64,000 nt of DNA from an uncultured Chloroflexia bacterium (GTDB lineage: Bacteria > Chloroflexota > Limnocylindria > Limnocylindrales > CSP1-4), in assembly GCA_963757055.1 (NCBI GenBank), contig CAVWPX010000008.1, positions 144,298 through 208,297 of the forward strand, written 5' to 3'. This document shows positions 28,203 to 57,286 of the stretch, one piece after another. The position numbers and the translations under genes were made by a program. Under the pieces are notes generated by a model. It did no database searches. It was not told the DNA's origin and saw only the letters and a program-made list of their open reading frames with translations. Each line of letters starts with the position of its first letter. Position 1 is the first letter of the stretch.

Positions 28203-29353
28203 GTGCTCTCCTCTGCTCCCGTCGCGCCGTCAGTGGGGATCGTGAGCCGGACGACGGTGCCGTCGTCCGGTCGCGACCGGATGTCCAGACGAGCGCCGAT
28301 CAGCTCGGCTCGCTCGCGCATGAATTGAAGGCCGAAGTGGCGGCGGCCCTGGGCGGCCACCGTCTCGCTGTCGAAGCCGCGACCGTCGTCGCGGACCTCG
28401 AGGGCGAACCCGTCGACGTCCACCGAGGTGGTGATCCGCACGTTCGTCGCCGAGGCGTGCTTGCGGACATTCTGGAGGGCTTCCTGGACCACGCGCAGCA
28501 CGACCGTCCGCGCGGCCTCGTCGAGGTCGTCGGTGGGGCCATCGAGCGAGGTCGTGATGACCACGCTGCTCACGGCCCGCGCGTGCTCCACGGCGTCGTC
28601 GATGGCCGCGTCCAGGCCCACCTCGTCGAGGCGGGGCGGGCGCAGCTGGCTGATGAACGTGCGCATGTCGCCGAGCTCGCGGCGGAGGAGCACGCGGAGC
28701 TGCCGCAGCTCGGTGCCGGCGAGTCGTGGATCCGTGGCCATCACCCGTTCGATGAACTCGACCTGGAAGATCGCGTTCGAGAGGCTCTGGGCCGGCCCGT
28801 CGTGGATCTCCTGGGCCAGCCTCGAGCGCTCGGCCTCCTCGGATTCGACGATCCGCATCGCGACGTCCGCGTTCGTCGCGGGGGCGTCCGCTTCGGCGAA
28901 CATCGGCTCGCCGCCGCGATCGAGGAAGCGCCGCGACCGCTCGAAGGTGCGCAGCGTGAGGTCGATGCGGCCGAGCTCGGCCTGGTGGTCGGCGAGCTCC
29001 CAGACGAGCCGGTCGACCTCCTGGCGCAGGACCCTCGTCCGCCGCTCGTCGATGCCGATCGGCGCGGGCGTGATCGCGATCACGCTGTCATCGGTCGCGG
29101 CGCCGTCGGTCGGGGACGGCTCGGTGCTGCGCCCGCCCTCGAGCCGATCCAGGTCGTCGCGAAGGGTCTGCCAGCGCGCGAGCTTCTCGTCGTACGCCTC
29201 CTGGTAGCGCTCCCGGATGCGCTGCAGCGAGCTCGCGCCCTCGCCGACCGCGGCGGTCGCCTCCTCGTGGAGACCGTCGAAGCGGTCACCGCCGGCATGC
29301 GCCTCGGAGCGTGCTGCCTCCATGGACTTCGGAGTATACGGGTCGTCTCTCAT
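28199..29353 (-). CDS. Cytoplasmic HisKA_3 sensor histidine kinase (DegS-like, no TM segments).
   Basis: It has the H-box ERSRLAQEIHDGPAQSLSNAIFQ, the N-box VVQEALQNVRKHA, DDGRGF and RRHFGLQFMRERAELIGARL. ATG 29353 overlaps the upstream stop (ATGA), and its own stop overlaps the regulator's start. Confidence 0.88.
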   Translation of the reverse strand: MRDDPYTPKSMEAARSEAHAGGDRFDGLHEEATAAVGEGASSLQRIRERYQEAYDEKLARWQTLRDDLDRLEGGRSTEPSPTDGAATDDSVIAITPAPIGIDERRTRVLRQEVDRLVWELADHQAELGRIDLTLRTFERSRRFLDRGGEPMFAEADAPATNADVAMRIVESEEAERSRLAQEIHDGPAQSLSNAIFQVEFIERVMATDPRLAGTELRQLRVLLRRELGDMRTFISQLRPPRLDEVGLDAAIDDAVEHARAVSSVVITTSLDGPTDDLDEAARTVVLRVVQEALQNVRKHASATNVRITTSVDVDGFALEVRDDGRGFDSETVAAQGRRHFGLQFMRERAELIGARLDIRSRPDDGTVVRLTIPTDGATGAEEST

Positions 29354-30985
29354 GGACAGACGACCTCGAACGCTCGAACGTCCTCGAGCGGATCGGGTCC
29401 GCCGCCGGCGGGGGCGCCGAGGTCGATCTCGCGGAAGCAGTCGGCGCCCTCGGTCGCGGTGTCGAGCACCGCCGGCCACTGGCCGTGGCTCCCGCCCGCG
29501 ACCACGAGGAGATGCGTGCCCGGGAACGCCGGGTCGTGGGCCAGGTCGAGGACGTCCACCGGCGGCTCGTCGGGCAGGGCGAGCGCCGGGATCCGCTGGC
29601 TCTCGGCGAGCCAGATCGGGAAGTCCGTGATGACCGGGCCGGCGGTCGCGTCGAGCGGGTGGCCGGCGATGGCCATCCGTCGCCCGAGCTCCTCGTAGAG
29701 CGCGGCCGTCGCGCGCGATCCCTCGCCGAAGGACGGGAGCAGCGCGATGGAGAACAGCGCCGACCCGAAGATCCCGAGGAGCGCCCCGAGCCAGGCCACC
29801 GGCCGGGTCCAGCCCAGCCGTGCGCCGAGCCTCGCGATGCCGGCGTCGAGGGCCAGCAGCGCCGAGACGATCAGCAGGACGTGGGCCGGTCCGGCCGCGT
29901 GGAGGAACGTGCCCCAGGTCGTCGCGACCGGGAAGACCAGGCTCGTGAACAGGAACGTGATGACCGACAGGAGGAGGACCGGCCGCAGGGCGGCGTCGCG
30001 GCCCTGCCACGGCAGCGCCAGGAGCCCGATGATCGAGAGCGGCAGGCCCGGCAGCAGCAGGACGGAGAACAGGTTGTGGGCGAGGCCGTCGACCCGCATC
30101 TCGACCAGCCGGGCCGGCCCGACCGCGAGATACCTGCGCGAGGGTCGGCGGGTCGTTCCAGGCGAAGATGTCGAAGCCGGTCACCGACAGGGCGTTGGTG
30201 GCCGCCTGGCCCGGCAGCGGGCTTCCGAAGACCATCCAGTCCCGCAGCGCCCACGGCGCGAAGACCACGACGGCGACGACGCCGGCGACCCCGATGAGCC
30301 GGAACCGGGCGGCGCGGTCGAGGCCGCCGGCCCGCCACGCCACGATGGCCCAGGCCAGGCCGATCCAGAGCGCCTCGTTGCGGGTGAGCGCGGCCAGGCC
30401 GATGAGGACGCCCAGGCCGAGGAGCCGCGGGTCGGCCGGCCGCGCGCCGCGCGGGTCGCGGGCGATCCGCGTCATCAGCAGGCAGGCGCCGAGCGCGAGC
30501 GCCGCGAACGGCATCGTCGAGTCGGGCAGCGCCGAGTGCAGGATGAGCGGCAGGTAGACGGCCGCGGTGAGGCCGCTGCCGAGGGCGAGCGTGCTGGCCC
30601 GGCCGTGCGGCAGGCCGCGCTCCTCGGCGACGTCCGCGGCCAGCCGCCAGGCGAGGACCGGGACCAGCGAGCCGACGAGCACCGACGACCACTGCGCCGC
30701 GGCGAAGCTCACGCCGCCGACCGCCATGGCGGCGGCCGCGAGGAACGTCGGCAGCGGGAGCCACACCTCGAAGGCGGGCCGCGGGAACCCGAGCGGCGGC
30801 GTCCCGTAGCTCCACAGCGCGTCGGAGACGAGGCCGTGGCCCTCGACGAGGTTGCGGGCCACGCCGACGTAGTAGGCGGTGTCCTCGGGCTTGGGGAAGA
30901 CGATCTGGCTCGCGAAGACGACGCGCACGACCAGCGCGACCGCGAAGACCAGGAGCGCGGAGAGGACCGCTTCGCGACGGGTCAC
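29350..30985 (-). CDS. Polytopic GT-C-type membrane glycosyltransferase (PMT_2/ArnT-like). The frame is interrupted near 30130-30136.
   Basis: VTRREAVLSALLVFAVALVVRVVFASQIVFPKPEDTAYYVGVARNLVEGHGLVSDALW...LTRNEALW... continues after the shift as YLAVGPARLVEMRVDGLAHNLF... (ORF 29350..30099). The GTG overlaps the upstream stop (GTGA). Confidence 0.68.
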
Positions 30986-32578
30986 GAGCCGCCCAGGTGG
31001 AGCGGGAACACCGCGAGCCCGACGGGGTCGCCCTGGGTCATGACCGGGGCGCCGACCCAGTCGGGACGCTGGCCGTCGAGGATGGGCTCGACCGACGCGA
31101 CCGCCTCGTCGCGATCGAGGACGAGCCAGTCGATGTCGTAGGCCCGGGCGACCGCCTCGATCTGGTCGAGCGGGTCGTTGACGAGGACGACGCCGCCCAG
31201 CCCGGTCCAGTACTTGGTGCCCGACGCGTCGATCGACATCACGCGATCGGTGGGCTTGGCGCCGGCCGTCACGAGCGCGTCCGCGATCGTCTCGAACCTG
31301 GCCTGGCGGCCGGCCCAGTCCGCGTGGACGGCGAGGGACCCCGCCACCGTGCACAGGACCGCGAAGCCGATGGCCGCGCCCACGAAGATCCGCGAGGCCT
31401 GGTCCGCGTCCCACGCGGGCCGTCGCCGGGCGATCCAGGCGACCGAGGCGACGATGCCCTCGATCGCGAGGATGTAGGCGTACGGCGCGAGGGCGATCGC
31501 CGAATGGATGAACGTGCCGCCGGGCACGTGCACGGCCGAGACGATCGCGGAGAACGCGAACAGCAGCGCCGTGTAGGCGAAGAACGGCCCGAAGTCGACC
31601 GACCGCCGTCGGAGCCAGCCGCCGATCAGCATGAACGGCGCGAGCACGAACCCCGCGACCAGGGTCGTGAAGATGAGGATGGCCGCGACCAGCCCGTCGA
31701 TGCGGGTGGCGATCAGCGGGCCGATGCCCATGCCGAGCAGGTGCTCGAGCGTCGCCGGGGTGGCGATGCTGTTCCATTCGCCGATGTCGCGGATGAAGAA
31801 GACCTTGCCGGACGCCGTCGACGGCGAGAGCGAGCCGAACACGATCAGCTGACGCGCCCACCACGGCGCCATCACGACCATGAACATCGCGACGCACGCC
31901 ACCGCCGCCCAGATCGGGATGGCCGGCACGCGCGCCCCCGCGGAGCGCCATGCCCGCCAGCGGTCCCACGCGACCGCCAGGCCGAGCGCGGCCAGGACCA
32001 GCAGGCCGTCGTTCCGGGACAGCGTCGCGAGACCCGTCAGCAGGCCGGCGAGGACGAACGACCTCGGTGAGCCCCGCAGCCCGCGGGCGCCCATCCAGAG
32101 CGCCCCGACGACGAGCGGCTGGTAGAGCGAGAAGTTGTCCGGCTGGACGAGGTAGACCGCCGAGAGCAGCGGGATGGCGACGAGGATGCCGGCGCCGACG
32201 GCGACCAGCGCCTCGGGCGCCCGCGTCGCGGGCGATCGCCCAGGTCAGCGGCGCGGCGATCGAGCCGATGATCGCGAAGGGCGCGGCGGCCGCCCACGGC
32301 TGGTCGCCGAAGACCGCGAGGAACGGCACCTGGACCATCGATGCCAGCGGCATCCAGTGGGCGTTGGACGGGATCGGCAGGGTCGGATGGACCGGGATGT
32401 GCCCGCCGACCTCCGGGAAGATCCAGATGAAGTCGATGTTGAAGCCCTGCCCGGCGTGGAGGGCTCGCGCGACGTCCACGTAATAGGACGAATCGGGATA
32501 GGCCGGTGCCGGGAAGTGCCAGATGAGCACCGCCCGGACGGCGAGGGCAAGCCCGTACAGCAGTAGGGGTGTACGCAC
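30982..32578 (-). CDS. Polytopic GT-C-type membrane glycosyltransferase (PMT_2/ArnT-like), paralogue of 29350..30985. The frame is interrupted near 32215-32225.
   Basis: The N-terminal part reads (V)RTPLLLYGLALAVRAVLIWHFPAPAYPDSSYYVDVARALHAGQGFNIDFIW.... After a 1-nt shift it reads ...PEALVAVGAGILVAIPLLSAVYLVQPDNFSLYQPLVVGALWMGARG...LSRNDGLL... (ORF 30982..32094). Confidence 0.68.
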
Positions 32579-32623: not shown

Positions 32624-33532
32624 TTAGGGGCTATCCGTGGGCGGCGGACGGAGGCTCGGCCAAGGGCCCGGACCGGCCTTGCCGGCGGCCAGCGTGGACA
32701 GCATGTACATCAGCAATCGCGGGCTCGCGACGACCGACAGCGACACGGCCAGGAGCCAGCCGGCGAGCCCCGGAGCCCGGCGCCACGCGACGATCGCGAG
32801 CGCGACGACCAGCGCGAGCCAGAGCAGCGGCGAGAACTGGTACGGCGAGAGGTTGCGCACGTCGCCCACCTGGTCGAGGTCCGGGAACGACAGGTAGGCG
32901 ATGGTGGCCGCGGGCTCGAGGAGGAGGGAGACCAGCCCCAGCACCGCCATCGCGACGACGAAGCGGCCGAGGGCGCCCCAGTCACGACGGCCGATCCAGA
33001 AGACCGCGACGAGGGCGGGGAGCACCTTGAGGTTGGCCGCCAGCGCGACCGCCCACGGGGCACCGACCGCCAGCAGGAACGTGACCGCGACCTGCGCCTG
33101 GCCGACGGCGAGGCTCCACGCGATCGGCGCCGCCAGCCATCCCAGGACGAGCCACGTCCAGCGGTCGCGGGGGCCCATCCGGACGACCGTCATGACCAGG
33201 GCCGCGATCAGCACGGCCTCCCAGATGCGGGCCGCGGTGTCGAAGGGCAGCAGCGCCAGCGGTCGGAAGAGGATGGCCAGCAGGGGCGGGTAGCGGTAGA
33301 AGGACGGGTCGTCGGTCCCGACCGGCTGCTCGTACAGCGGCTGGCCCGCGTTGAGCCGGGCGCCGGCGTCGTAGTAGGCATGGACGTCCGCGAGCGGGTC
33401 GGTCTGGAGATGGACCCGCAGCGTGTCGAACCCGATGAGCGTCCCGAGCCAGGCCGCGGCGATCAGCACGTACCAGATGCGTCGCGGGACCGGTGCGGTG
33501 GTGCCGAACGGGATCCGCGGCCCCGCGATCAT
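32624..33532 (-). CDS. DUF2029/GT87-like (PimE-like) membrane glycosyltransferase.
   Basis: MIAGPRIP...DPLADVHAYYDAGARLNAGQPLYEQ...FYRYPPLLAILFRPLALLP...ANLKVLPALVAVFW. The ATG overlaps the upstream stop (ATGA). Confidence 0.68.
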   Translation of the reverse strand: MIAGPRIPFGTTAPVPRRIWYVLIAAAWLGTLIGFDTLRVHLQTDPLADVHAYYDAGARLNAGQPLYEQPVGTDDPSFYRYPPLLAILFRPLALLPFDTAARIWEAVLIAALVMTVVRMGPRDRWTWLVLGWLAAPIAWSLAVGQAQVAVTFLLAVGAPWAVALAANLKVLPALVAVFWIGRRDWGALGRFVVAMAVLGLVSLLLEPAATIAYLSFPDLDQVGDVRNLSPYQFSPLLWLALVVALAIVAWRRAPGLAGWLLAVSLSVVASPRLLMYMLSTLAAGKAGPGPWPSLRPPPTDSP

Positions 33533-34638
33533 GCGGGGAGGGGCCCGCCGGCGACCGGTTCGCGTGGGACGGGCTCGAAGACGGCGGGCCAGCGGCGGCC
33601 GGCGAGCATGCCCCCGACGACGATGCCGATCCCCAGCCACCAGCCTTCCGCCGTCGCGGTCGAGGTGAGCATCGCGGCGAGGAGCGCGAACTCGAGCCGG
33701 ATGCGGAGCATGGCCGGGAGCAGGAACAGCCCGGTGAAGTCGTGCATGTTCGGGGTCACGACGAGCATCAGCAGCCCGAGCCACGCCCCGGTGTCGGCGC
33801 CGCGCAGGCGGACCGCGATGACGAGCGACGCGATCGTGATGCCCGCGAAGACGGCCGACGGGAGGTACTTGAGCAGGGACGGTCCCATCGCCGGCCACGC
33901 GGGGTCCGAGGCTCGGGCGACCTGTGCCAGCCAGTCGGAGTAGAGCGCGATCCCCACGAGCGGGAGCGTCACGGCGACCACGACGATCCACGGCACGGCG
34001 CCGAGGAGGGCGGCCCGCGGCGAGCGGACGGCGACGGCGAGCCAGGCGTGGATCTGCGTGGCCTTCACGCTGGCGACCGTGGCCGCGTACCAGCCGATCC
34101 TGGGCGTCACCGCCCCGGGTCGCTCCAGGTCGCGTGGCTCCGGGTGCAGGTCATGGCGGTCGGGCGCGCGCCAGAAGGCGGCGACGAACGCCGCGAAGAG
34201 GATCAGCTGGACGTTCGCGCCCCAGATGCTGCCCAGCATCGGCTCCCAGATCAGGACCAGCGGCACGGCCAGCCACGGGATGGCCAGCCGGCGGCAGACC
34301 AGGAGCGCCACGGCCAGGGCGATGCCGGTCCACACGTACCGGACCAGGAGCTCGGGCAGGGCGGTCAGTGGCGCGAGGAAGGGCAGCACGAACGGCGGAT
34401 ACAGGAACGGCGGCAGCACGTCGGGGTTCGTGAAGCCATCCGGCAGGTAGACGACCCCGCCCTCCAGCCAGCGATGGGCGGCGGCGAGCGGGATCGTCGC
34501 GTCGATGGCGACCGGGAACGCGGTCACGATCCGGAGATCGGTCACCAGCGCGACCAGGATCGCCACGGCGAGCAGGACGACGCGGACGATGGTCGTCGTC
34601 CGGGTCCCCGGCCCGAGCGCGACGGCGGTCGATGTCAC
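33529..34638 (-). CDS. Polytopic membrane protein, divergent DUF2029/GT87-like.
   Basis: An intact 369-aa ORF with ...AIDATIPLAAAHRWLEGGVVYLPDGF...FLYPPFVLPFLAPLTALP.... It has about 9-10 predicted TM helices. Confidence 0.55.
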   Translation of the reverse strand: MTSTAVALGPGTRTTTIVRVVLLAVAILVALVTDLRIVTAFPVAIDATIPLAAAHRWLEGGVVYLPDGFTNPDVLPPFLYPPFVLPFLAPLTALPELLVRYVWTGIALAVALLVCRRLAIPWLAVPLVLIWEPMLGSIWGANVQLILFAAFVAAFWRAPDRHDLHPEPRDLERPGAVTPRIGWYAATVASVKATQIHAWLAVAVRSPRAALLGAVPWIVVVAVTLPLVGIALYSDWLAQVARASDPAWPAMGPSLLKYLPSAVFAGITIASLVIAVRLRGADTGAWLGLLMLVVTPNMHDFTGLFLLPAMLRIRLEFALLAAMLTSTATAEGWWLGIGIVVGGMLAGRRWPAVFEPVPREPVAGGPLPA

Positions 34639-34744: not shown

Positions 34745-35561
34745 ATGAGCCCCGCGGCGCGCGCGGCCCGCGATGGCGCCGTGCTGGCCGGCCTGCTCTT
34801 CCTCGCGTATCTCTTCCTCGTGATCGCGCCCGCCGAGCGCACCGTCGGCTTCGACGCCTTCGCCTACTGGAACGTCGACCCGGCCGCGCCGTACCAGGGC
34901 GGGGTCGGGGCGCTCGGCGCCTTCAACTACTCGCCGCCGATCGCGCGGCTGTTCGGCCCGTTCGGGCTGCTCGAGTGGCCGTCGTTCCTGTGGATCTGGA
35001 TGGCGCTCCTGCGTGGGCAACCTGGTCTGGCTGGGCGGTCGCAGCGTGCGCGTGCTCTGGCTCCTGGCGCTGCCGCCGGTCGCCTTCGAGCTCTATCACG
35101 GCAACGTCCACCTGTGGATCGCCTCGGCGATCGTGCTCGGCTTCCGCTACCCGTGGACCTGGGCCTTCGTGCTGCTGACCAAGGTGACGCCCGGGCTCGG
35201 CCTCGTCTGGTTCGCCGCTCGACGGGAGTGGCGCTCGCTCGCGATCGCCCTCGGGGTGACGGCCGCGATCGTCGCGGTCTCGCTGGCGCTCGATCGCCAG
35301 CTCTGGTCCGAGTGGATCTCGTTCCTCTCGGCGACGCCCGAAGGCGGGTCGGTCGCCCAGTTCCAGATCCCGGTGCCGCTCTGGCTGCGCCTGCCGATCG
35401 CGGTCGTGCTCGTCGTGTGGGGCGCCCTGACCGACCGCCGCTGGACGGTCCCGCTGGCGGCGACGCTCGCGCTGCCCGTCCTGTGGATCAGCGGCTTCGC
35501 GATCTGCGCGGCCTGTCTCCCGCTCGCCCGGCGGCAGGCGAGCGGCAAGGCCGTCGCCTAG
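34745..35561 (+). CDS. DUF2029/GT87-like membrane protein. The frame is interrupted near 35005-35015.
   Basis: MSPAARAARDGAVLAGLLFLAYLF...GFDAFAYWNVDPAAPYQ...FNYSPPIARLFGPFGLL continues as ...VGNLVWLGGRS...FRYPWTWAFVLLTKVTPGLGLVWFAARREWR (ORF 35013..35561). Confidence 0.62.
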
Positions 35562-36842
35562 CCGGTCTCCGCGGCCTGGACGGTCGACGGCTGGGCCGGA
35601 CGTGCACTCGCCCCGCAGCCGCCAGGCGAGCCCGATCGCGAACAGGGCCATCACCACGACGGGGACGCGGATCGGCGGACCCTCGACGGCGTTGGCGCTG
35701 ATCCCGTTGGCGATGAGCACGACGAACGTCGCGACGGCCAGGAGCAGCCCGTCCCGCCCGCCCTCGGGCCGCTCGCGCAGGGCCCGGTACGCGATGGCCG
35801 CCGCCGGCACCAGCAGCAGGTCGTCGTGCGGGTTCAGGTGGGCGCTGGTCAGGAGCCCGATCACGATGGTGAGCGCGAAGCGCAGGTCGAAGTCCGGGGT
35901 CGTCGGCGACCACCTGCCGCGCCATAGCCAGGCGACGCCCAGCAGCCCCAGGATCTGGCCGACGAAGGCCAGCCCGTTGATCAGGCCCGCCTGCTCGGCC
36001 GCCCGGTCGGGGCCGATCAGCAGGGTCAGCGTGCCGCGGACGTTCCACATCACCGAGGGCCGGACGCTCAGCTCGTCGAACGTCGACACGTAGCGCGACA
36101 GGAAGCGCAGGTAGTCGCCCCAGATCGCCGGTCCGAGGACGACGGTCGCCAGCACGGCGAGCAGCGCGGCGACCACGAGGCCGACGCCGATCGCGCGCCA
36201 GCGCCGCCCGACGAGGAGCATCACGCCGAGCGTCGCCACCGCCTGGGGCTTGATCGTGGCGAGGACCAGCCACGCGCCGGCCCGTCCGTCATGGGACCGC
36301 CGCAGCGCGAGGTACGCCTCCACGACGGCGACGCAGGCCAGCAGCGAGAACGCCCCCTGCAGGAACGTGATGATCAGCGGCGAGGCCGCCAGCGAGACCG
36401 CGACCAGGGCCACCCGCTCCTCGCGCGTCCAGGTCGCCGCGACCGCGGACCAGAGCCGCCAGACGAGCCACGCCAGCAGGCCGATCTGGATGGCGCCCCA
36501 GACCAGGTAGCTGGTCCCCAGCGGGAGGGCGGCGAGCGGCACGAACGGCACGACCAGGTGCGGCGGGTTGTTGAAGGGGTTGAGCCCGGCTTCGAAGCTG
36601 CGGCCGCCCAGGATCGCCTGCTGCGTGGCCGTCTGCGTCCCGATGTCGTAGAGGTCCGGGCCGTGGCCGTCGGCGACGATCGTCCAGCCCGTGTAGAACG
36701 CGGTGTAGTCGGCCTGCTCGGTGTGGCCGCCCACGATCAGCGCCAGCCACAGCCCGATGTAGACGGCGAACACCGAGAACCCCAGGATCGTGATCGTCAG
36801 CGCCACGCGGCGGCGCGTGGACGACCCCGGCGCAGCCTCCAT
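35558..36842 (-). CDS. DUF2029/GT87-like membrane glycosyltransferase. The 3' end is uncertain.
   Basis: MEAAPGSS...EQADYTAFYTGWTIVADGHGPDLYD...FNNPPHLVVPFVPLAALP...ATIKPQAV.... GGGAGG precedes ATG 36842. The frame runs on antisense to the neighbouring gene unless a 1-nt shift at the GGGG run near 35610 brings the TAG (reverse complement of 35558-35560) into frame. Confidence 0.6.
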
Positions 36843-36924
36843 CCACCCGCCTCCCTGGTGCTCCAATGGCCCGGGCAGCCTAGCAGGACCATCCGACCGC
36901 GACCCGTCCCGTAGACTTCCGCCG

Positions 36925-43263: not shown

Positions 43264-43334
43264 CGGCCCGGTCCGGTCCGGCGACGCCGTTGCGGTCGCA
43301 ACCATCCGAGGGCATCCGGTGCTATCGTTCGAGC

Positions 43335-47222: not shown

Positions 47223-47324
47223 CCGGACGCCCGCGACGACGCCGGCGGGCGAGCCCGCGGGACCGCGGTTGGTACTAGGGCGGGCCGGACCTTCGCAGCG
47301 CGGTGCCGCCGTGCACCGTGCTGC

Positions 47325-47340
47325 TAGAGTCGCCGAAATG
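47325..47340 (+). promoter_or_regulatory. Candidate -10 (TAGAGT) placed 7 nt before the dehydrogenase ATG, a geometry that suggests a leaderless transcript.
   Basis: ctgcTAGAGTcgccgaaATG, with no Shine-Dalgarno sequence between. Confidence 0.2.
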
Positions 47341-49511: not shown

Positions 49512-50530
49512 GGATCCTCGTCACCGGCGCGGCCGGGTTCATCAACGGCTATCTCGTCCCGGAGCTCCTCGAGGCCGGTCATGACGTGATCGGGCTCGAC
49601 GACTTCAGCAAGTACGGCCGGCTGTCCAAGTCGTACGACGAGCATCCGCGCTACCGGTTCGTCGAGGGCGACGCCAAGGACGCGGACCTCATGCGCGAGC
49701 TGGCCGCCGACTGCGACCAGGTCGTGGCCGCCGCCGCGATGATCGGCGGGATCAGCTACTTCCACGAGTTCGCCTACGACCTGCTCGCGGAGAACGAGCG
49801 GATCCTCGCCTCGACCTTCGATGCGGCGATCGCCGCGCACCGGGACGGCCACCTCGAGCGGATCATCGTGGTCTCCAGCTCGATGGTCTACGAGTCGGCG
49901 ACCGTCTTCCCGACGCCGGAGGGCGCGCAGCGGACCTCGCCGCCGCCGATCTCGACCTACGGCTTCCAGAAGCTCGCGTCCGAGTACTTCGCCCTGGGCG
50001 CGGTCGAGCAGTACGGCCTGCCCTACACGATCGTGCGCCCCTTCAACTGCGTCGGGATCGGCGAGCGCCGCGCGCTGCGGGACACCGACATCATGTCCGG
50101 CAACGTGAAGCTCGCGCTGTCCCACGTGGTCCCGGACCTCGTCCTCAAGGTCCTCAAGGGCCAGGACCCGCTCCACATCCTGGGCGACGGATCGCAGGTG
50201 CGGCACTACACGTACGGCGGCGACCTGGCCCACGGGATCCGCCTCGCGATGGAGTCGCCCGACGCGATCGGCGAGGACTACAACCTCTCGACCGCCGCCT
50301 CGACCACCGTCCTCGAGCTGGCCGAGACCATCTGGCGGAAGGTCCACGGGCCGGACCGGCCGTTCGCCACGGTCAGCGACCCGCCGTTCGAGCACGACGT
50401 CAAGCTGCGCGTCCCCGACGTGCGCAAGGCCCGCGAGCAGCTCGGCTTCGAGGCGACCACCACGCTCGACGAGATGCTCGACGAGGTGATCCCGTGGATC
50501 GCGGCGGAGACCGCGGTCGGCCGGCTCTAG
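49508..50530 (+). CDS. NAD-dependent SDR epimerase/dehydratase.
   Basis: MRILVTGAAGFINGYLVPELL...VVSSSMVYE...STYGFQKLASE (YxxxK). The ATG overlaps the upstream stop (ATGA). Confidence 0.9.
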   Translation: MRILVTGAAGFINGYLVPELLEAGHDVIGLDDFSKYGRLSKSYDEHPRYRFVEGDAKDADLMRELAADCDQVVAAAAMIGGISYFHEFAYDLLAENERILASTFDAAIAAHRDGHLERIIVVSSSMVYESATVFPTPEGAQRTSPPPISTYGFQKLASEYFALGAVEQYGLPYTIVRPFNCVGIGERRALRDTDIMSGNVKLALSHVVPDLVLKVLKGQDPLHILGDGSQVRHYTYGGDLAHGIRLAMESPDAIGEDYNLSTAASTTVLELAETIWRKVHGPDRPFATVSDPPFEHDVKLRVPDVRKAREQLGFEATTTLDEMLDEVIPWIAAETAVGRL

Positions 50531-50532
50531 AC

Positions 50533-52006
50533 GTGGGCGTCGCGGCGCCTGACGCCCCGCCGGCCGAGACCGGGCTGTCGACGGTCTTCGGCATCCGCAT
50601 CCTGGCCCGCCTCGGCCCGGCGCGGCTGACCGGCCTGTTCGGGCTCCTCTTCTGGGTGGGCGCGATGGTCTGGCTGCCGATGACGCTGCGCCCCGACCTC
50701 ATCCGGCCGGCCGACCTCGGCTCCGACACGTCCAACTACGCGGCGGCGGGGGAGCGCCTCGCGCAGGGGTCGGACCTGTACGCGCTGCAGGCCGGCGACC
50801 GGCCGGTCCCCGCCGACAATCCCCCGGAGTGGTCGGTGCCGATCCTCTCGCCGCCGGCGGTCGGGGTCCTGTGGGCGCCGCTGACGCTCCTGCCGCAGCC
50901 GTTCGAGCTGTACACGAGCTGGACGGTCGGCCTGGCCTGCACGGTCGCGCTGGGCGTGTTCCTGGTCCTCCGCCTGCGACCGCTGCTGGTCGTCGCGATC
51001 CTCGCGCCGCTGATGGTCCTCACCCTCGTCGCCTGGTCCGGGAACCTGTATGCCCTGCTCGCCCCGGCGTTCGCGCTGACCTGGTGGCTCTCGGTCCGGG
51101 AGCGGACCCGCGAGAGCGAGTGGCTGGTCGGGGCGATCATCGGCGCCGCGACGGTGCTCAAGCTGGGGCCGGCCGTGCTGCTCGTCTGGCTGCTGGCCGG
51201 GCGGCGGACCGACGCGCTCGCCAGCGCGGCCGTCACCGGGCTCGTGTCGGTGGCCGCCGCCGTCTGGCTCGGCGGCGTCGGCATCTTCCGGGAGTACCTC
51301 GACGTCGTCCTCCATTCCGCGGGCACGCCGGCCCCGCTGAGCATCCCGGGCCTGCTCGCCGGGCTGGGGCTGCCGGCGACCGTGGCCCGGCTCGGGCTGC
51401 TCGTCGTCGTGGCCCTCGGCTGCCTCGCGGTCGTGCTCCTGCGCAAGGACCCGCGCCGGTCGTTCGCGGTGGCGGTCGTCCTGAGCCTGTTCGCCACCAC
51501 GGTCGTCCGGCCGGAGACGCTCGTCGTCGCGCTCGTCGCGCTGATGCCGTGGGCGACGCACGACAACGCGCCGATCGAGCCGCTGCGCGGCGACGCCCGC
51601 TCCCCGATGCTCGCGATCTCGGCCGGGGTCGCCGCGATCGCGGTGGCCCTGTCGATCACCACGGGCGGGCTGCGGTCCTCGTCGATGACGCTGGTCAACG
51701 ACACCGCCGCGCCGGTCGTCGTCCGCTTCACCGTGCCGTCCCAGGACGCGTCGTTCGGGTTCCGGCTCCAGCCCGGCGAGGCGGGGACCGGGTGGCTCGA
51801 CCGGCTCGGGACCGTGTTCTCGCCGGTCTACGTGACCACCGCGAGCTGCGACCTCCTGTACCAGTTCGACGCGGACCCGAGCGTGACCGCCATGCGCATC
51901 GGCCCGGACGTCCGCGGTCGCCGTGGAGCAGCCGGCCGGCGCGTTCCTCGACTACGCGCCCGATTGCGCCGAGGTCGTCGCGCTGAGCGCGGCGGGCTCG
52001 AGGTAG
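50533..52006 (+). CDS. DUF2029/GT87-like membrane protein with a C-terminal extracytoplasmic domain. The frame is interrupted near 51910-51920.
   Basis: GTG start. ...LGSDTSNYAAAGERLAQGSDLYAL...VPILSPPAVGVLWAPLTLLP...VLKLGPAVLLVWLLAGRR... is followed by the tail ...VAVEQPAGAFLDYAPDCAEVVALSAAGSR* in the shifted frame (TAG 52004-52006). Confidence 0.6.
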
Positions 52007-52066
52007 CCGGGTGCACCCGTACCTTCAGCGGGTTGTCCGCTGGCACCGGCATGCAAGACTGCGCAA

Positions 52067-52804
52067 GTGACCGAGATCCCGCACGCCCCGAACGAACCGA
52101 TCGTCGCCGTGATCATCCCGGCGCTGAACGAGGCCGGCAAGATCGGCCGCGTCCTCGACAAGCTGCCCGCCGACGGGCGCTTCGAGGCGATCGTCGTCGA
52201 TGACGGCTCGACCGACCGGACCGGCGACGAGGCGCGCGAGCACGGCGCGGCGGTGGTCGTCCGGCACGAGCAGCGCGGCGGGGTCGGCGCGGCCATCCGC
52301 GACGGCTGGCGCGTCGGGGTCGCCCGCGAGCGGCCGTACCTCGCCCTGCTGTCCGGCGACGACCAGCACGAGCCGGCCGAGCTGGTCGCCGCGCTGGACG
52401 CGCTCCTGGCCGCCGAGGCCGACTATCTCCAGGGCTCGCGCTGGATGCCGGGCGGCCAGGTCTTCGGCGCCATCGGCGGCCGGGCCCGCGGCACGCGGCT
52501 CTATTCGATGGCGTTCAGCGTCCTCGTCGGCCGGCGCGTGACCGACGCGACCAACGGCTTCCGGATCTTCCGCAGCGAGCTCCTGTCCGATCCGAAGATC
52601 GAGCTCGACCAGCGCTGGCTCGACAGCTACGACCTCGAGCCCTACGTCCTGTACCGGGCGATCACCCGCGGGTACCGGGTCATCGAGTTCCCGGTGACCG
52701 TGCGCTACCACCGCAACGAGAGCTATACGAAGATGCGCGGCATGAAGGACTGGTGGCGGCTGTTCCGCCCGGCCCTGCTGCTGCGGACCGGGGTCAAGCG
52801 ATGA
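52067..52804 (+). CDS. GT2 polyprenyl-phosphate sugar synthase-like glycosyltransferase.
   Basis: GTG start. VAVIIPALNEAGKIG...AIVVDDGSTDRT...LLSGDDQHEP...TNGFRIF.... Confidence 0.85.
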   Translation: MTEIPHAPNEPIVAVIIPALNEAGKIGRVLDKLPADGRFEAIVVDDGSTDRTGDEAREHGAAVVVRHEQRGGVGAAIRDGWRVGVARERPYLALLSGDDQHEPAELVAALDALLAAEADYLQGSRWMPGGQVFGAIGGRARGTRLYSMAFSVLVGRRVTDATNGFRIFRSELLSDPKIELDQRWLDSYDLEPYVLYRAITRGYRVIEFPVTVRYHRNESYTKMRGMKDWWRLFRPALLLRTGVKR

Positions 52805-53790
52805 GCGCGGTGGCGCTCGAGCGCTCCTTCGGCGCGCGCCGGATCCTCGTCACGGGCGGCGCCGGCTTCGTCGGCTCGGCGGTGACCCGGCGGCTGGTGG
52901 ACGCCGGCGCCCGCGTCACCGTCCTCGACGACCTCTTCACCGGCAAGGCCGACGAGCTGCCGACGGGCGCGGAGTTCGTCCGCGGGTCCGTCACCGACGC
53001 GCCGCTCGTCAACGAGCTCGTCGCCGAGCACGGCCTGATCTTCCACCTCGCCGCGCGGAACATCATCGCGTCGACCGCCAACCCGCTCGACGACTACGCC
53101 ACGAACATCGGCGGCACGCTGAACATCCTCCTGGCGGCGCGCGAGTCCAAGGTCGACCGCATCGTCTACTCGTCGTCGGCGTCCGTGTACGGCAACCCGC
53201 GCTCGATCCCGATCAACGAGGACGACGGGCTGTGGACGCTGTCGCCCTACGCGGTCAGCAAGCTCGGCGGCGAGAACTACTGCACGGCCTTCGCCGAGAG
53301 CTACGGCCTGCGGGTCGCGACGGTCCGCTTCTCGAACGTCTACGGCCCGCACCAGCGGCCGGACAACCCCTACAGCGGCGTCGTCTCGAAGTTCCTCGTC
53401 GAGGCCCACGCGGGCCGGCCGATCACGATCCACGGCGACGGCGAGCAGACGCGCGACTACACCTTCATCGACGACGCCGTCGACGCGACCCTCCTCGCGG
53501 CCATCCACCCGCGCGCCGAGGGCGAGGTCTTCAACGTCGGCACCGGGATCGAGACGTCGGTGAACCGGCTCGCCGCCTCGATCGGGACGGCGCTCGGCAC
53601 CGAGATCGACGTCCAGCACGTCGACCGACGCGACATCGACAACATCCGGCGCCGGGTCGTCAACATCGAGAAGATCCGCCGGATGCTGCGCTGGACGCCG
53701 CAGTACACCCTCGAGCGCGGCCTCGAGCAGACCGTCGAGTGGTACCTGGGCTCGTCCTTCGCGTCCGAGCCCGTCGCCAGCGCCCGATGA
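52801..53790 (+). CDS. NAD-dependent SDR epimerase/dehydratase (UDP-sugar 4-epimerase / decarboxylase-like).
   Basis: RILVTGGAGFVGSAVTRRLV...YSSSASVYG...SPYAVSKLGGE (YxxxK). ATGA overlap with the preceding GT2. Confidence 0.9.
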   Translation: MSAVALERSFGARRILVTGGAGFVGSAVTRRLVDAGARVTVLDDLFTGKADELPTGAEFVRGSVTDAPLVNELVAEHGLIFHLAARNIIASTANPLDDYATNIGGTLNILLAARESKVDRIVYSSSASVYGNPRSIPINEDDGLWTLSPYAVSKLGGENYCTAFAESYGLRVATVRFSNVYGPHQRPDNPYSGVVSKFLVEAHAGRPITIHGDGEQTRDYTFIDDAVDATLLAAIHPRAEGEVFNVGTGIETSVNRLAASIGTALGTEIDVQHVDRRDIDNIRRRVVNIEKIRRMLRWTPQYTLERGLEQTVEWYLGSSFASEPVASAR

Positions 53791-54530
53791 CCGACGGGCC
53801 GACGCTCGCCATCGTCCTGCCCGTCTACAACGAGGGTCCGGCGGTCGAGCCCGTCCTGCGCGCCCTGACGGCCGGCGTCCGGACGCCGCACGAGCTCATC
53901 GTCGTGTACGACTTCGACGAGGACACGACCGTCCCGGTGATCGCCCGGCTCGAAGGCGAGCTGCCTGGCCTCCGCGGTGTCCGCAACGACCTCGGGCGAG
54001 GCGTGCTCAACGCCATGAAGGCGGGCATCGCGGCGACGACCGCGCCGTACGTCCTGATCTCCATGGCCGACGGGTCCGACGAGCCGCAGGTGGTCGACCC
54101 GATGGTGGCCCTGGCGGTCGGCGGGGCGGACGTCGTCTCGGCGTCGCGGTACATGCGCGGCGGGCGACAGGTCGGCGGGCCGCTGCTGAAGCGGACCCTG
54201 AGCCGGGCCGCGGGCCTGAGCCTGCACTGGTTCGGCGGCGTGGCGACGCACGACCCCACCAACAACTTCAAGCTCTACGCGAGGCGCTTCCTCGATTCGG
54301 TCACGATCGAGAGCACGGCCGGCTTCGAGCTCGCGCTCGAGCTGACCGTCAAGGCGACGCTCTCCGGACGCACGGTCGCCGAGGTGCCCACGACCTGGCG
54401 CGACCGGACCGCCGGGACGAGCAACTTCAAGCTCCGCAAGTGGCTGCCGCACTACCTGCACTGGTACTGGACGGCCTTCCGCGGCCGCTTCGCCGGCTGG
54501 CGACGCGACGGGCATGGCATCGTCGGCTAG
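53787..54530 (+). CDS. GT2 polyprenyl-phosphate sugar synthase-like glycosyltransferase.
   Basis: LAIVLPVYNEGPAV...LIVVYDFDEDTT...ISMADGSDEP...TNNFKLY.... ATGA overlap with the epimerase. Confidence 0.85.
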   Translation: MTDGPTLAIVLPVYNEGPAVEPVLRALTAGVRTPHELIVVYDFDEDTTVPVIARLEGELPGLRGVRNDLGRGVLNAMKAGIAATTAPYVLISMADGSDEPQVVDPMVALAVGGADVVSASRYMRGGRQVGGPLLKRTLSRAAGLSLHWFGGVATHDPTNNFKLYARRFLDSVTIESTAGFELALELTVKATLSGRTVAEVPTTWRDRTAGTSNFKLRKWLPHYLHWYWTAFRGRFAGWRRDGHGIVG

Positions 54531-55299
54531 CCCCACCGACATCGCGAGCCTCGGGGTCGAGACCGGTCGATCCGGCCCGCTCGTGGCCGCCGGGCGGATC
54601 GTGGCGATGGTGCTCATCGGCCTCGGCTGGCTCTGGATCGCGCTGGCGATCTTCTGGAGCCTGTCGAGCCCGTCGTTCGGGCTGGACTACCGCTGGCACG
54701 TCGAGGCGGCCCAGCGCCTGCTCGACACCGGAACGCCGTACCTGCCCTTCGAGCTGAGCGGGCCGTTCGTCATCGGCGATGGCGCGATCCTCTACCCGCC
54801 GACCGCGTTCCTCCTGTTCATCCCGTTCATCTGGCTCCCCGCCGTGCTGTGGTGGGCGATCCCGATCGCCGTCACCGCGTATGGCATCTGGTGGCACCGG
54901 CCGCCGCTGTGGGCGTGGGTGGTCATCACGGGCCTGTTCGCGCTCGAGAAGTCCATCAACGTCTACGTCTTCGGCAACCCGTCGATGTGGATCGTCGCGG
55001 CGATCGCGGCCGGCAGCGTCTGGCGCTGGCCGTTCGTCTTCGTGCTTGCCAAGCCGACCTTCGCGCCCATCGCGCTGCTCGGCGCCCGGCGACGCAGCTG
55101 GTGGATCGCGCTTGGCGTGCTCGCTGTGGCCTCCATCCCGTTCCTCCCGGTCTGGCTCGACTGGCTGACCGTCGTCCGCAACTCCGACGTCTCGCTGCTG
55201 TACAACCTCCCGACGCTCCCGCTCATGCTGGCGCCGCTCGTGGCGTGGGCGACGGGCCGAGATCGACCCGCATGGCTGCCGGGTCGCCTGCCGAGGTGA
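54514..55299 (+). CDS. Small polytopic membrane protein, DUF2029/GT87-like (tandem paralogue 1).
   Basis: ...FGLDYRWHVEAAQRLLDTGTPYLP...ILYPPTAFLLFIPF...FGNPSMW...LAKPTFAPIALLGARRRSWW...GRDR. Confidence 0.55.
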   Translation: MASSASPTDIASLGVETGRSGPLVAAGRIVAMVLIGLGWLWIALAIFWSLSSPSFGLDYRWHVEAAQRLLDTGTPYLPFELSGPFVIGDGAILYPPTAFLLFIPFIWLPAVLWWAIPIAVTAYGIWWHRPPLWAWVVITGLFALEKSINVYVFGNPSMWIVAAIAAGSVWRWPFVFVLAKPTFAPIALLGARRRSWWIALGVLAVASIPFLPVWLDWLTVVRNSDVSLLYNLPTLPLMLAPLVAWATGRDRPAWLPGRLPR

Positions 55300-56075
55300 T
55301 CGCGACGAAGCGCTGGCCCGACCGGGCCGGTCTTCGTCGTTGGTCGCCGGTCCGGATCCTGCTCGTGCTTGCGACCGGCCTCCTCGTGGCCGAGGTCGTC
55401 ATCTCCTTCACGCTCGTCCGCGACGCCGGGGAGCTCTGGATCGACTACACGTTCTACCGGCAGATCGGCGTCCGCTGGCTCGCCGACGGGACCTACTACC
55501 TGCCCCATCAGCTGACCGGCGTGCCGTACGGCCTCGTGCCCATGCAGGACGTCCTCTACCCGCCGACGGCGCTGTTCCTGTTCGTGCCGCTCACGGTCGT
55601 GCCCGCGGTCGTGTGGTGGATCGTGCCGGTCGGCGTGCTGGCCGCCACGACGTGGCTGTGGCGTCCCAGGCCGCTGGCCCTGCTCGCCATGCTCCTGCTG
55701 CTCATGTGGCCGCGCGCGGAGTCGGCCTTCATCTTCGGCAACTCGGACATGTGGATGGCCGCTGCGGTCGCCGCGGGCCTGCGCTGGGGCTGGCCCGCGC
55801 TCCTGCTGGTCGTCAAGCCCATCTTCCTGCCCCTCGCCGCCCTGGGCGCGGATCGGATCTCGTGGTGGGTCGGCGCCGGCCTGATCGTGGTCGTGAGCCT
55901 CGCCATGCTGCCGCTGTGGTCGCAGTACATCGTCGCGATCCGCAGCCTGCGAATCGGCCTCGACTACTCGATCGGCAGCCTGCCGCTGCTCCTCGTGCCG
56001 ATCATGGGCTGGCTGGGACGGGACCGGACGCGGGACCCGAGAGCCCGTCATGCGGAGCCGTCCCCGACTGCGTGA
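55272..56075 (+). CDS. Small polytopic membrane protein, DUF2029/GT87-like (tandem paralogue 2).
   Basis: ...LWIDYTFYRQIGVRWLADGTYYLP...VLYPPTALFLFVPL...FGNSDMW...VVKPIFLPLAALGADRISWW...GRDR. The start (ATG 55272 or GTG 55296) is uncertain. Confidence 0.55.
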   Translation: MAAGSPAEVIATKRWPDRAGLRRWSPVRILLVLATGLLVAEVVISFTLVRDAGELWIDYTFYRQIGVRWLADGTYYLPHQLTGVPYGLVPMQDVLYPPTALFLFVPLTVVPAVVWWIVPVGVLAATTWLWRPRPLALLAMLLLLMWPRAESAFIFGNSDMWMAAAVAAGLRWGWPALLLVVKPIFLPLAALGADRISWWVGAGLIVVVSLAMLPLWSQYIVAIRSLRIGLDYSIGSLPLLLVPIMGWLGRDRTRDPRARHAEPSPTA

Positions 56076-57286
56076 GCCGCACCGTCACGACGGTGAGGAC
56101 CAGGATCGCGACCGAGCCGGCCACGCCGAGCCAGCCGTCGACGGGGAGGAGCGCGCCGATCTCCGGCGTCGGGGGCACCGCCGCGAGCAGGTTCAGCGTG
56201 AAGACGATGCCGAAGGCGAGCCCCAGCCAGCGCACGCGCGCCTCGGGGATCAGCAGCATGAAGAAGACGAGCGCGCCGTACGCATAGCGCTCGTGCATCG
56301 AGGTCAGGAAGCAGAAGGCGACCAGCGTCGCCGCCGCGAGACCGAGCACCAGCGTCCGCGGTCGCGGGTCGCGCAGGATCGCGAGCGCGACGACGATCTC
56401 CAGGATGCCCGTCACGAGGAACCCGACATGCCGGAGCGTGATCGGCCCGAGGAACGCCTGGTCGTCGGCGATGAAGCCGCCGCCGGCGAACAGCGACTGC
56501 ACCAGCCACCACAGGTTCCAGGCCCGGAGCGACAGGATGTTGAAGATGTCGCCCTGGTACTCGGCCAGGTTGTGGAGGTAGTTCGCCGGTCCGCCCGCCG
56601 GGATGAACGGCAGCCAGAGCACGACGATCACGGCCAGGCCGATCAGCCCGGCCCGCACCAGGCCGCGCCACCCGCCGGTCGCCCAGAACCAGGCCGCGAA
56701 CGGGCAGCAGGAACGGCAGGACCTGCGGCTTGGTCATGAGCGCGACCGCGAGCAGCGCGGCGGCGGCGCCGTTGCGACCGTGGACGGCGCACAGCACCGC
56801 GGCCAGCGCGGACAGCATGTAGATCGACTCGTACTGGCCCCACCAGGCGCTGATGTCGATGACGGCGGGGTGCAGCAGGATGGCGGCCGCACCGATCGCC
56901 GCCCACCACGGCCGGTCGCGCAGGGCGAAGGCCACGAGCGCCGCCAGGCCGAGGTCGGCCAGCGACGCCGGTGTCTTCATCAGGGCCCGGATCGCCGGGT
57001 CCGACGAATCCGTCACCGTCTTGAAGGCTGGCTCGATCGCCGCGAGGACGCCCCAGACGTAGGCCATGACCGGCGGGAACGAGAGGTTCTGGTCGTAGGC
57101 GTGGGGCAGGCCGTTCACGGCGATGCCGTGCGTCCAGAGGACGAAGACGTCGAGGTCCCCGGTCAGCCCGGGCGTGGGCAGCAGCAGCGCCCGGATGACG
57201 ATGCCGGCGACGAGGGCGGCGATGCCCACCACGATCGCGGCGACCGGCCGAGCCGCGGGGTCCGCCTCGAGCCGGCGGTCGCTCAC
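56002..57286 (-). CDS. GT-C membrane mannosyltransferase-like protein (Gpi18/PIG-V-like, COG5542-type). The frame is interrupted near 56660-56700.
   Basis: VSDRRLE...LTGDLDVFVLWTHGIAVNGLPHAYDQNLSFPPVMAYVWG...LADLGLAALV...MTKPQVLPFLLP continues as ...IPAGGPANYLHNLAEYQGDIFNILSLRAWNLWW...LTSMHERYAYGALVFF... (ORF 56002..56658). Confidence 0.6.

Follow-up and report, generated by a model that had tools for sequence, protein, structure and literature searches.

What might a bacterium build with 15 polytopic glycosyltransferases encoded side by side? The question is raised by a 28-kb block (positions 29350–57289) in a stretch of 64,000 nucleotides, hereafter the window, from an uncultured member of Candidatus Limnocylindria in the phylum Chloroflexota (GenBank assembly GCA_963757055.1, contig CAVWPX010000008.1, positions 144,298–208,297 of the forward strand). 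Candidatus Limnocylindria, formerly Ellin6529, is a widespread soil and freshwater class known mainly from metagenome-assembled genomes (MAGs). An original prediction, made from the nucleotide sequence before any database search, described the block as a supercluster of about 16 GT-C-type membrane glycosyltransferase paralogues with the genes for synthesis of their donors, and proposed that it serves an undescribed lipoglycan, wall or protein glycosylation pathway. We put at roughly 0.6 the probability that the block is an envelope-glycan assembly locus of Candidatus Limnocylindria, conserved across the class and composed of stacked modules of donor synthases and GT-C enzymes. Its product is most likely a surface glycolipid or glycan.

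The block comprises 25 genes, which we letter A to Y in order and which leave almost no intergenic space. The G+C content is approximately 72% throughout the window, and because of this composition the raw lists of open reading frames are swamped by spurious frames; the genes were called instead from codon-position GC (GC3). This high value agrees with those of the class, whose genomes have a median GC content of 68.9% and a size of 2.39 Mb (PMC10608941). Within the window, we observed neither a tRNA gene nor a compositional break at the block that would mark it as an island. Fifteen of the 25 genes encode GT-C-type polytopic glycosyltransferases of five kinds, with ten resembling GT87/PimE, two of PMT_2 type (A and B), one resembling ALG6/ALG8 (X) and two, N and I, having no Pfam or NCBIfam family. 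The soluble proteins consist of three GT2 enzymes similar to dolichyl-phosphate (Dol-P)-hexose synthases, a nucleotide-sugar dehydrogenase, two short-chain dehydrogenases/reductases (SDRs), a GT4 enzyme, an Acetyltransf_6 protein and a PIG-L deacetylase, and the one further gene, J, encodes a fusion of a major facilitator superfamily (MFS)-like and a spermidine-synthase-like domain. The supercluster and its undescribed glycan pathway are supported by profile, fold and active-site evidence, and each coordinate originally named corresponds to a gene start or stop. The predicted donor genes are likewise all present, from the GT2s, the dehydrogenase and the SDRs to the GT4 and the Acetyltransf_6 protein, and no open reading frame taken for a GT-C has instead the appearance of a Wzy protein, ligase or transporter. 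The account of the conserved block has to be enlarged by J and by the PIG-L gene Y.

The ten GT87-like genes form the largest group. Seven of them, at 28–88 bits, lie above the 25-bit cutoff of the Pfam GT87 family (PF09594). On the minus strand these are C (32624..33500, 56 bits), D (33529..34638, 32.5 bits) and F (35560..36806, 88.5 bits), the last a protein of about 400 residues with an uncertain 3′ end, its stop codon having been lost in the assembly. On the plus strand, they are the short E (34745..35561, about 270 residues, 38.9 bits, with a frameshift near 35012), the full-length, PimE-like H (37728..38823, 78.3 bits, with a frameshift near 38525), the short P (48540..49511, 28.2 bits) and R (50533..52203, 61.9 bits), which carries an extracytoplasmic C-terminal extension. 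The other three are also on the plus strand. The short gene K (42363..43263, with a frameshift near 42771) falls below the Pfam cutoff at 21 bits, and V (54514..55299, 261 residues) and its paralogue W (55272..56075, 35% identical to V) yield no match in the Pfam scan. We built an alignment for each gene from related loci and compared these all against all with hhalign, by which all ten form a single connected group that K, V and W join at probabilities of 97–98%. Within it, D pairs with H (98.2%) and K (98.3%), E with P (100%), K with V (97.8%), V with D (96.9%), and W with V (100%) and H (97.1%). The group is the set of ten DUF2029/GT87 genes originally proposed.

The family profile of H matches the solved structure of Mycobacterium abscessus PimE (9dm5) with an E value of 4.7e-13; the family profile was needed for this match, as a single-sequence phmmer search of the Protein Data Bank (PDB) with H missed PimE. 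In PimE, D58 at the tip of the first juxtamembrane helix is the catalytic base and is supported by Y62, and K195, W319, H321 and H322 hold the donor phosphate (PMC12041525). The equivalents of D58, Y62, K195 and W319/H321 are conserved in H, and those of D58, Y62 and K195 are also present in C. The aspartate equivalent to D58 is aligned in nine of the ten paralogues, and P has the same D-x-x-x-Y motif unaligned (VDTDMYW). At the position of Y62, eight of the ten have a tyrosine, phenylalanine or histidine. The lysine equivalent to K195, located in a K-x-x-P or K-P loop, is aligned in five (C, E, H, P and R) and can be found by eye one or two residues off the alignment in D, F, K, V and W. The acidic/aromatic and Lys-x-x-Pro motifs singled out from the translations are hence those of the catalytic D58/Y62 pair and the phosphate-binding K195 of PimE. 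The C-terminal SPxxWxHH motif, which contains W319, H321 and H322, occurs only in H (SPVLWNHY) and partly in F; R aligns across this region without the residues, and in C, D, E, K, P, V and W the region is lacking or not aligned. The donor of PimE itself is polyprenyl-phosphate mannose, from which it forms α-1,2-mannosyl links.

The shortest of these proteins, which we term mini-GT87, represent a populous family. A search with V returned 753 cluster representatives, most of them 240–300 residues in length, and the profile of the V family (A6) matches the GT87-like profile of the H family (A5) with a probability of 98.0% and an E value of 1.9e-13. Individual members matched Pfam GT87 in 12 of the 65 cases tested. 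Across the 65 sequences aligned in the V-family profile, K180 is invariant and the D58 equivalent nearly so. The small size is real, since an intact V-like open reading frame of 255 residues is found in a short-read MAG. To our knowledge, proteins of about 255 residues would be the smallest GT-C glycosyltransferases. Identity among the GT87-like paralogues of the window does not exceed 35%, against 60–90% to their positional orthologues in relatives, and we therefore consider them old and individually maintained instead of the result of a recent amplification.

The five remaining GT-C genes of the block had all been read as PMT_2/ArnT/Gpi18-like enzymes, an assignment that probably holds for A and B and has to be given up for X, N and I. 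Gene A (29350..30985, minus strand, approximately 540 residues, with a frameshift near 30136) scores 22.1 bits against the PMT_2 cutoff of 26.1 in its frameshifted state. It is 30% identical to B over 401 residues and pairs with it in hhalign at 98.8%, which makes it by sequence a clear paralogue of B. As for B itself (30982..32578, minus strand, approximately 530 residues), the frameshift at 32213/32214 breaks the domain, and the split query gives no PMT_2 match; the domain (PF13231) is present in the precomputed annotation of all 120 homologues of about 530 residues among the matches listed, including an intact protein that is 98% identical. The profile of X (56002..57289, minus strand, approximately 430 residues, with a frameshift near 56690) matches yeast ALG6 (6snh) with an E value of 9.9e-6, aligning its positions 19–333 (about 315) to chain residues 85–421. 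X scores 17.7 bits against the Pfam Alg6_Alg8 cutoff of 25 and also gives a weak match to GT87, and so is a distant relative of ALG6/ALG8 and not a member of the Pfam family. NCBIfam offers no useful name for A, B, N, X, K, V or W, nor for a further gene outside the block. The latter, at approximately 14156–15725 on the minus strand, had been proposed as a sixth PMT_2-like enzyme; it does encode a polytopic protein resembling PMT_2, with a weak signal (16.7 bits) and a frameshifted reading frame. It adjoins a similarly frameshifted gene for a xylose-isomerase-like TIM-barrel protein (AP_endonuc_2) at 15761–16664, also on the minus strand.

For N (45789..47222, plus strand, 477 residues), we obtained no Pfam, NCBIfam or PDB sequence match, as its profile (A1) retrieved nothing meaningful from the PDB sequences. 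Its AlphaFold2 model, computed with 24 homologues, has a pLDDT of 87.8 and a pTM of 0.87, and the top 19 Foldseek matches are all GT-C structures (STT3, ArnT, DPY19, AglB, AftD, ALG12 and PglB) with TMq values of 0.47–0.60 and E values down to 5.8e-7. The model thus points to an STT3/ArnT/DPY19-like fold with an extracytoplasmic C-terminal α/β domain of about 130 residues, and an invariant aspartate (D28) is located in the first loop. The profile of I (38820..40016, plus strand, 398 residues; A2) likewise found nothing meaningful among PDB sequences. Its model has a pLDDT of 64.7, and the best structural matches are Pmt4, AftD, PIG-U, STT3B and AftA. All nine Foldseek matches with a probability of at least 0.99 have GT-C folds, the best E value being 1.3e-3, and there is a weak match to the LA_3751 putative glycosyltransferase family. 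From this model, we predict with moderate confidence that I adopts a GT-C fold.

These fold matches bring protein glycosylation into consideration, in which the GT-Cs would attach polyprenyl-phosphate-derived sugars to the oxygen or nitrogen atoms of secreted, S-layer or Flp pilin proteins; protein O-mannosylation would then fall to A and B, and N would act like an oligosaccharyltransferase. By homology, A and B fall in PMT_2, in the protein O-mannosyltransferase superfamily, the best fold matches of N are STT3 subunits of oligosaccharyltransferase, that of I is Pmt4, and the locus always adjoins a block of Flp/Tad pilus and two-component genes. PMT_2 is broad, however, and also covers ArnT-like transferases that act on lipids and glycans. 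Inspection of N by eye revealed no WWDYG-type or WWD motif, as its sole tryptophan pair, the invariant W293-W294, sits in a membrane helix; without this motif N is not an oligosaccharyltransferase in the strict sense, and its model resembles STT3 in fold only. In addition, ten GT87/PimE enzymes with a GT4, an acyltransferase and a PIG-L protein suit the elaboration of a glycolipid better than the decoration of proteins with single sugars. We consider protein glycosylation unlikely on these grounds and retain the assembly of an envelope glycan.

The soluble genes would supply the donors for such an assembly. G (36925..37731), S (52067..52804) and U (53787..54530), all on the plus strand, match Glycos_transf_2 at 79.9, 69.4 and 58.5 bits, respectively, and encode proteins of 245–268 residues with no predicted membrane helices. 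G would be of the polyprenyl-phosphate hexose synthase type, and S and U of the Dol-P-hexose synthase type. Their closest NCBIfam models are dolichyl-phosphate hexose transferase, AglJ, PpgS and ArnC; the first of these is the best match for both G and U, below the cutoff for G, and S matches AglJ, Dol-P-hexose transferase and PpgS. The best solved relative of S is the Dol-P-Man synthase of Pyrococcus furiosus (5mlz, E value 1.2e-7). The nucleotide-sugar dehydrogenase O (47176..48543, plus strand) contains all three UDPG_MGDP_dh domains and exceeds the TIGR03026 cutoff at 268.8 bits. Q (49487..50530, plus strand) is an extended SDR of the nucleotide-sugar epimerase/decarboxylase type (Epimerase, 140 bits), with UDP-Glc 4-epimerase, UDP-GlcA decarboxylase and MoeE5 as its best solved relatives, and T (52801..53790, plus strand) is an SDR of the epimerase/dehydratase type (Epimerase, 202.8 bits). 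By comparison with NCBIfam and the PDB, O, Q and T can be assigned only at the level of nucleoside diphosphate (NDP)-sugar dehydrogenase and extended SDR.

A second set of soluble enzymes comprises L, M and Y. L (43290..44530, plus strand) is an Acetyltransf_6 acyltransferase of the GNAT/FemX-like type (PF13480, 109 bits; Mig-14, 34.5 bits), and M (44533..45739, plus strand, with a frameshift near 45266) is a GT4 enzyme with matches to Glyco_transf_4 and Glycos_transf_1, the best solved relatives of which are BshA, PimB′, MshA and PimA. Y (57288..58361, minus strand), a deacetylase of the PIG-L/LmbE family (PF02585, 59.7 bits), lies directly upstream of X; on the strand that both share, its reading frame ends at 57288, hard against the beginning of X, and this arrangement links the deacetylase with a GT-C. 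The best PDB matches of Y, which are weak, are teicoplanin pseudoaglycone deacetylases. J (40013..42343, plus strand, approximately 780 residues, with four frameshifts) joins a polytopic, MFS-like domain (weak MFS_1) to a C-terminal spermidine-synthase-like domain (Spermine_synth, 26.6 bits). Homologues of 784–814 residues are intact in two related loci (L001 and L010). In the literature, we found nothing on fused MFS/spermidine synthases in glycan synthesis. J may serve as the flippase that the locus otherwise lacks, or as a transferase that modifies the glycan.

The frameshifts noted above raise the question of whether the block is still functional. Approximately 12 frame switches without stop codons lie within its 28 kb, at about 30136, 32213, 35012, 38525, 42771, 45266 and 56690 and at four sites within 40013–42343 (near 40294, 40714, 41064 and 41380), and about a dozen genes are split by single-base shifts. 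The stops of F and L are also missing. Taken by themselves, these features would fit a decaying cluster, in which many of the paralogues are pseudogenes in this strain and the supercluster is a relic. The same genes are intact in relatives, however. For B, the intact metagenome protein P0241 (515 residues, 98–99% identical) aligns as two abutting frames that meet at 32213/32214; for A, an intact homologue of 542 residues in the related locus L083 spans the frameshift at 30136; and J, M, H and X, once their frames are merged, each match short-read MAGs over the whole length in one uninterrupted alignment. Similar fragmentation is found in other long-read MAGs of the clade and not in the short-read MAGs, codon-position GC is strongly coding on either side of every switch, and flanking genes, including the xylose-isomerase-like gene and the other PMT_2-like gene, have frame switches as well. 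We find it very improbable, in light of these observations, that the cluster is decaying and rejected pseudogenisation in favour of assembly indels, which, given the intact genes in relatives, are most likely the source of the frameshifts in this sequence. Frame switches occur across the window at roughly one per 3–5 kb, including the flanks at 101–1068, 4253–5762 and 14294–16664. Long homopolymers are not located at the frameshift sites, as the whole window contains a single run of at least six bases. The frames of L (43221–45440) and F (34923–37010) run far past the ends of the corresponding genes in relatives with no stop there, which suggests further small indels near their 3′ ends.

We next consider how widely the locus is distributed. 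Look-ups of the exact protein sequences of T and N returned no record. N has more than 1,400 homologues, and those that are named come from MAGs of Chloroflexota or Candidatus Limnocylindrales. Scanning one genome per GTDB species, we found relatives of N in at least 578 species genomes, and the best 80 loci are nearly all from MAGs named as Chloroflexota or Limnocylindrales. Because these relatives belong to Limnocylindria, the comparison with mycobacteria made in the original prediction is one of analogy and not of relationship. We rejected an actinobacterial origin, to which the G+C content of 72% and the mycobacterial analogy might point, since every close relative is a Chloroflexota/Limnocylindria MAG. 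Homologues with 41–47% identity to N also occur in MAGs labelled as Actinomycetota, with no other cluster gene nearby (loci L050, L054, L057, L063, L070, L072, L074, L079 and L080).

When the proteins of the window are mapped onto 81 loci centred on homologues of N, a conserved order emerges: G-H-I-[small GT87]-J-[K]-L-M-[small]-N-[small]-O-Q-U-[small]-X′-Y′-Z′-ZZ′. The other arm in relatives, as in the window, consists of Tad/Flp pilus genes, a response regulator, a histidine kinase, A, B, one to three GT87 genes, a variable region and then G. The locus is therefore not unique, as dozens of related MAGs share it in synteny. Of 42 full-length related loci, 39 contain L and M along with N, and distant relatives keep only L-M-N-(E)-Y′-Z′. 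The adjacencies of synthase and GT-C in G-H-I, R-S-T and U-V-W/X are conserved in relatives, as is the X′-Y′ pair. R-S-T, which encodes a GT87-like enzyme, a GT2 and an SDR, recurs as a unit in eleven loci at different positions and with R in either orientation, and thus behaves as a movable three-gene module (L014, L016, L018, L019, L025, L028, L029, L038, L040, L049 and L065). O-Q-U-(small)-X′ forms another unit. Between species, the modules G-H-I-J, L-M-N, O-Q-U-small GT87-X and R-S-T are gained, lost and shuffled, which suggests that the structure of the glycan varies between lineages. Within 10 kb on either side of N, the related loci have a median of four GT87-like genes (range 0–9), and the window has seven, out of ten overall. 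Such a density, which the original prediction took as a sign of something undescribed, is accordingly routine among relatives, all of which are uncultured MAGs without a known product.

Several features of the flanks and of the variable region were also recorded. To the left, at 17152–28202 on the minus strand, lie a ribosome hibernation factor, genes of a Tad/Flp-type pilus (T2SSF, T2SSE and a response-regulator/ParA-like TadZ), along with a pair of HisKA_3 histidine kinases. In relatives, too, the locus is flanked by this pilus and two-component block, together with Flp pilin genes and a GerE-type response regulator. To the right, two unusual genes on the minus strand come after the locus in almost every relative: one (58417–59844) has a protein-L-isoaspartate O-methyltransferase domain preceded by about 260 further residues, and the other (59937–61934) is a DUF5317-MFS fusion. 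The variable region of relatives, which separates the left-arm GT87 genes from G, contains three to five paralogues of a membrane protein of about 520 residues that has membrane helices at its N terminus and matches weakly to a sulfatase domain of the alkaline-phosphatase superfamily (L083:497–6782, L084:66–7917 and L082:4253–6301), of which no copy is present in the window. By sequence, this protein may be an LtaS/EptA-like phosphotransferase. Further to the right, a cyclic-di-GMP-II riboswitch aptamer (Rfam RF01786) is located at 63709–63791 on the minus strand, with a score of 63.5 bits against a gathering score of 53.5.

How might these enzymes work together? In the assembly that we propose, the dehydrogenase O and the SDRs Q and T would tailor nucleotide sugars in the cytoplasm, and G, S and U, as Dpm1/DPMS-type GT2s, would load single sugars onto polyprenyl phosphate. 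Each of these three synthases is encoded beside its own GT-Cs and would be fed by O/Q or T, giving up to three lipid-linked sugars. A flippase, for which the polytopic domain of J is the sole candidate in the locus, would then move the lipid-linked sugars across the membrane, and at its outer face each of the 15 GT-Cs would add one sugar in one linkage to the growing glycan. Synthesis of the primer at the inner face would fall to the GT4 enzyme M, the FemX/GNAT-like enzyme L and the PIG-L protein Y, which form a nearly universal core of the locus, with the GT4 adding an N-acetylhexosamine, the PIG-L protein removing the acetyl group and the GNAT re-acylating the freed amine. From this point, the lipoglycan would be built as are lipomannan (LM) and lipoarabinomannan (LAM) or the glycosylphosphatidylinositol (GPI) anchor. 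The three-step logic of GT4, PIG-L and acylation recurs in the biosynthesis of teicoplanin, mycothiol and, broadly, GPI. A glycolipid primer is the most likely acceptor, a part of the proposal that we hold less firmly than the assignment of the locus itself.

An alternative acceptor is the cell wall. The GT-Cs could add the backbone or side-chain sugars of a secondary polysaccharide, similar to arabinogalactan or to secondary cell wall polysaccharides, outside the cell and on peptidoglycan. Cultured Chloroflexota such as Chloroflexus have heteropolysaccharides bound to peptidoglycan, which speaks for this possibility, as does the addition of side chains to wall polysaccharides by GT-Cs, which is well established; mycobacterial arabinan is likewise made by many GT-Cs, and AftA and AftD are among our fold matches. 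The machinery expected of such a polymer is the difficulty. Among the 25 genes, Pfam matches none to the families of initiating phosphoglycosyl transferases, Wzx/Wzy, ABC exporters or LCP ligases, and the genes called in the syntenic loci likewise show none of these polymer-assembly families, although the rest of the genome may encode them. The only route visible in the locus is thus assembly from single, monophosphate-linked sugars, and we regard a wall polysaccharide as distinctly improbable. As the locus yielded no genes that would handle diphosphate-linked repeat units or ligation to the wall, we prefer a lipid-anchored glycan to a wall polymer or protein glycan. A lipoglycan is the probable product; this, like the acceptor, the sugars and the flipping step, is something we infer from the genes.

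A number of observations weigh against the assembly of an envelope lipoglycan as we describe it. In the Pfam scan, all 25 genes lack matches to the GtrA, ArnE/F and MATE flippase families. The sole unassigned transporter-like element in the locus is the MFS-like domain of J, whose role as a flippase is a guess. Nothing in the window indicates phosphatidylinositol or another lipid anchor. The combination of GT4, PIG-L and GNAT also resembles the biosynthesis of low-molecular-weight thiols (BshA/BshB and MshA/B/D). G, S and U score far below the NCBIfam equivalog cutoffs, which leaves the donor sugars unassigned. Six of the GT87-like proteins (C, E, K, P, V and W), at about 255–320 residues, end before the donor-phosphate region of PimE that contains W319, H321 and H322, and the model of I is of moderate confidence only. 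Finally, Y, Z and ZZ flank even the minimal versions of the locus, so that synteny alone cannot prove that Y belongs to the pathway, and all relatives are MAGs, the system being known from genes alone.

The general logic of the locus is familiar from three kinds of characterised system. Similar to the mycobacterial pathway for phosphatidylinositol mannosides (PIM), LM and LAM, in which PimA/PimB′, Ppm1 and PimE/MptA-C take part, the locus has a cytoplasmic GT4 that would prime a lipid, Dpm1-like GT2s that would make the polyprenyl-phosphate sugars and GT87/PimE-type GT-Cs that would extend the glycan outside the membrane, and the catalytic aspartate and phosphate-binding lysine are common to both. 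The locus differs in that it is found in Chloroflexota, with all genes in one place, and in that three distinct GT2s, the predicted donor synthases, are accompanied by a dehydrogenase and SDRs of their own. It further includes a PIG-L protein, a FemX/GNAT-like acyltransferase, an ALG6-like GT-C and two unnamed types of GT-C. The shortness of six of its ten GT87-like proteins, without the C-terminal phosphate-binding region, also sets it apart from the mycobacterial pathway, as does the lack of evidence for inositol lipids in the window.

In three-component systems, a synthase of polyprenyl-phosphate sugars works with a flippase and a GT-C, and auxiliary epimerases widen the range of sugars (PMC11127046). 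They include Gtr, ArnC/ArnEF/ArnT and the PPPRS, MATE and GT136 system (Kelly et al. 2024, PMC11127046), and the logic of the locus is alike, as the sets G-H-I, R-S-T and O-Q-U-X look like such modules. In contrast to these systems, however, the window has no recognisable flippase, stacks several modules with 15 GT-Cs and, since no Wzx/Wzy or ABC genes are present in the locus, appears to build most of the glycan instead of decorating one made by those routes. The third comparison is with the eukaryotic GPI and Dol-P toolkit of the endoplasmic reticulum (PIG-A, PIG-L, PIG-W, PIG-M/V/B, DPM1 and ALG6/8). The same enzyme classes are found in the locus, namely a GT4, a PIG-L protein, an acyltransferase, Dol-P-hexose synthases and several GT-Cs including one similar to ALG6, and the sulfatase-superfamily membrane proteins of relatives, absent from the window, recall the phosphoethanolamine transferases of GPI synthesis. 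This resemblance is one of enzyme classes only, and we do not claim orthology; the acyltransferase of the window is a soluble GNAT and not PIG-W, and the locus has no transamidase.

A bolder version of the lipoglycan proposal, which we advance only tentatively, is that the product is of the PIM/LAM or GPI type and the first outside Actinomycetota. It would begin with an N-acylated glucosamine glycolipid made by the GT4, then the PIG-L protein and then the FemX/GNAT-like acyltransferase, and would be extended outside the cell by three hitherto unrecognised kinds of GT-C, namely the N, I and mini-GT87 families. If this is correct, the shuffling of modules between species would give rise to a serotype-like diversity of glycans.

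In the literature on Limnocylindria or Chloroflexi in connection with GT87, GT-C or lipoglycans, we found no description of this locus, which is large, class-wide and uncharacterised. It departs from the known systems in the phylum, the packing into a single locus, the three donor modules, the lack of a recognisable flippase, a bacterial ALG6-like enzyme, the unnamed GT-C types and the mini-GT87 proteins. N and I introduce two types of GT-C for which neither Pfam nor NCBIfam has a model, the former being the one with relatives in several hundred species genomes. The GT87-like proteins of about 255 residues keep the aspartate and the lysine without a third of the PimE scaffold, and may help to define the minimal GT-C catalytic unit. 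The locus also provides a natural example of the modular gain and loss of units that pair a donor synthase with GT-Cs. The devotion of about 1% of a genome of about 2.4 Mb to one locus with 15 GT-Cs implies that its product is a major, undescribed component of the envelope, and the locus offers a testable entry to the cell-surface chemistry of Limnocylindria.

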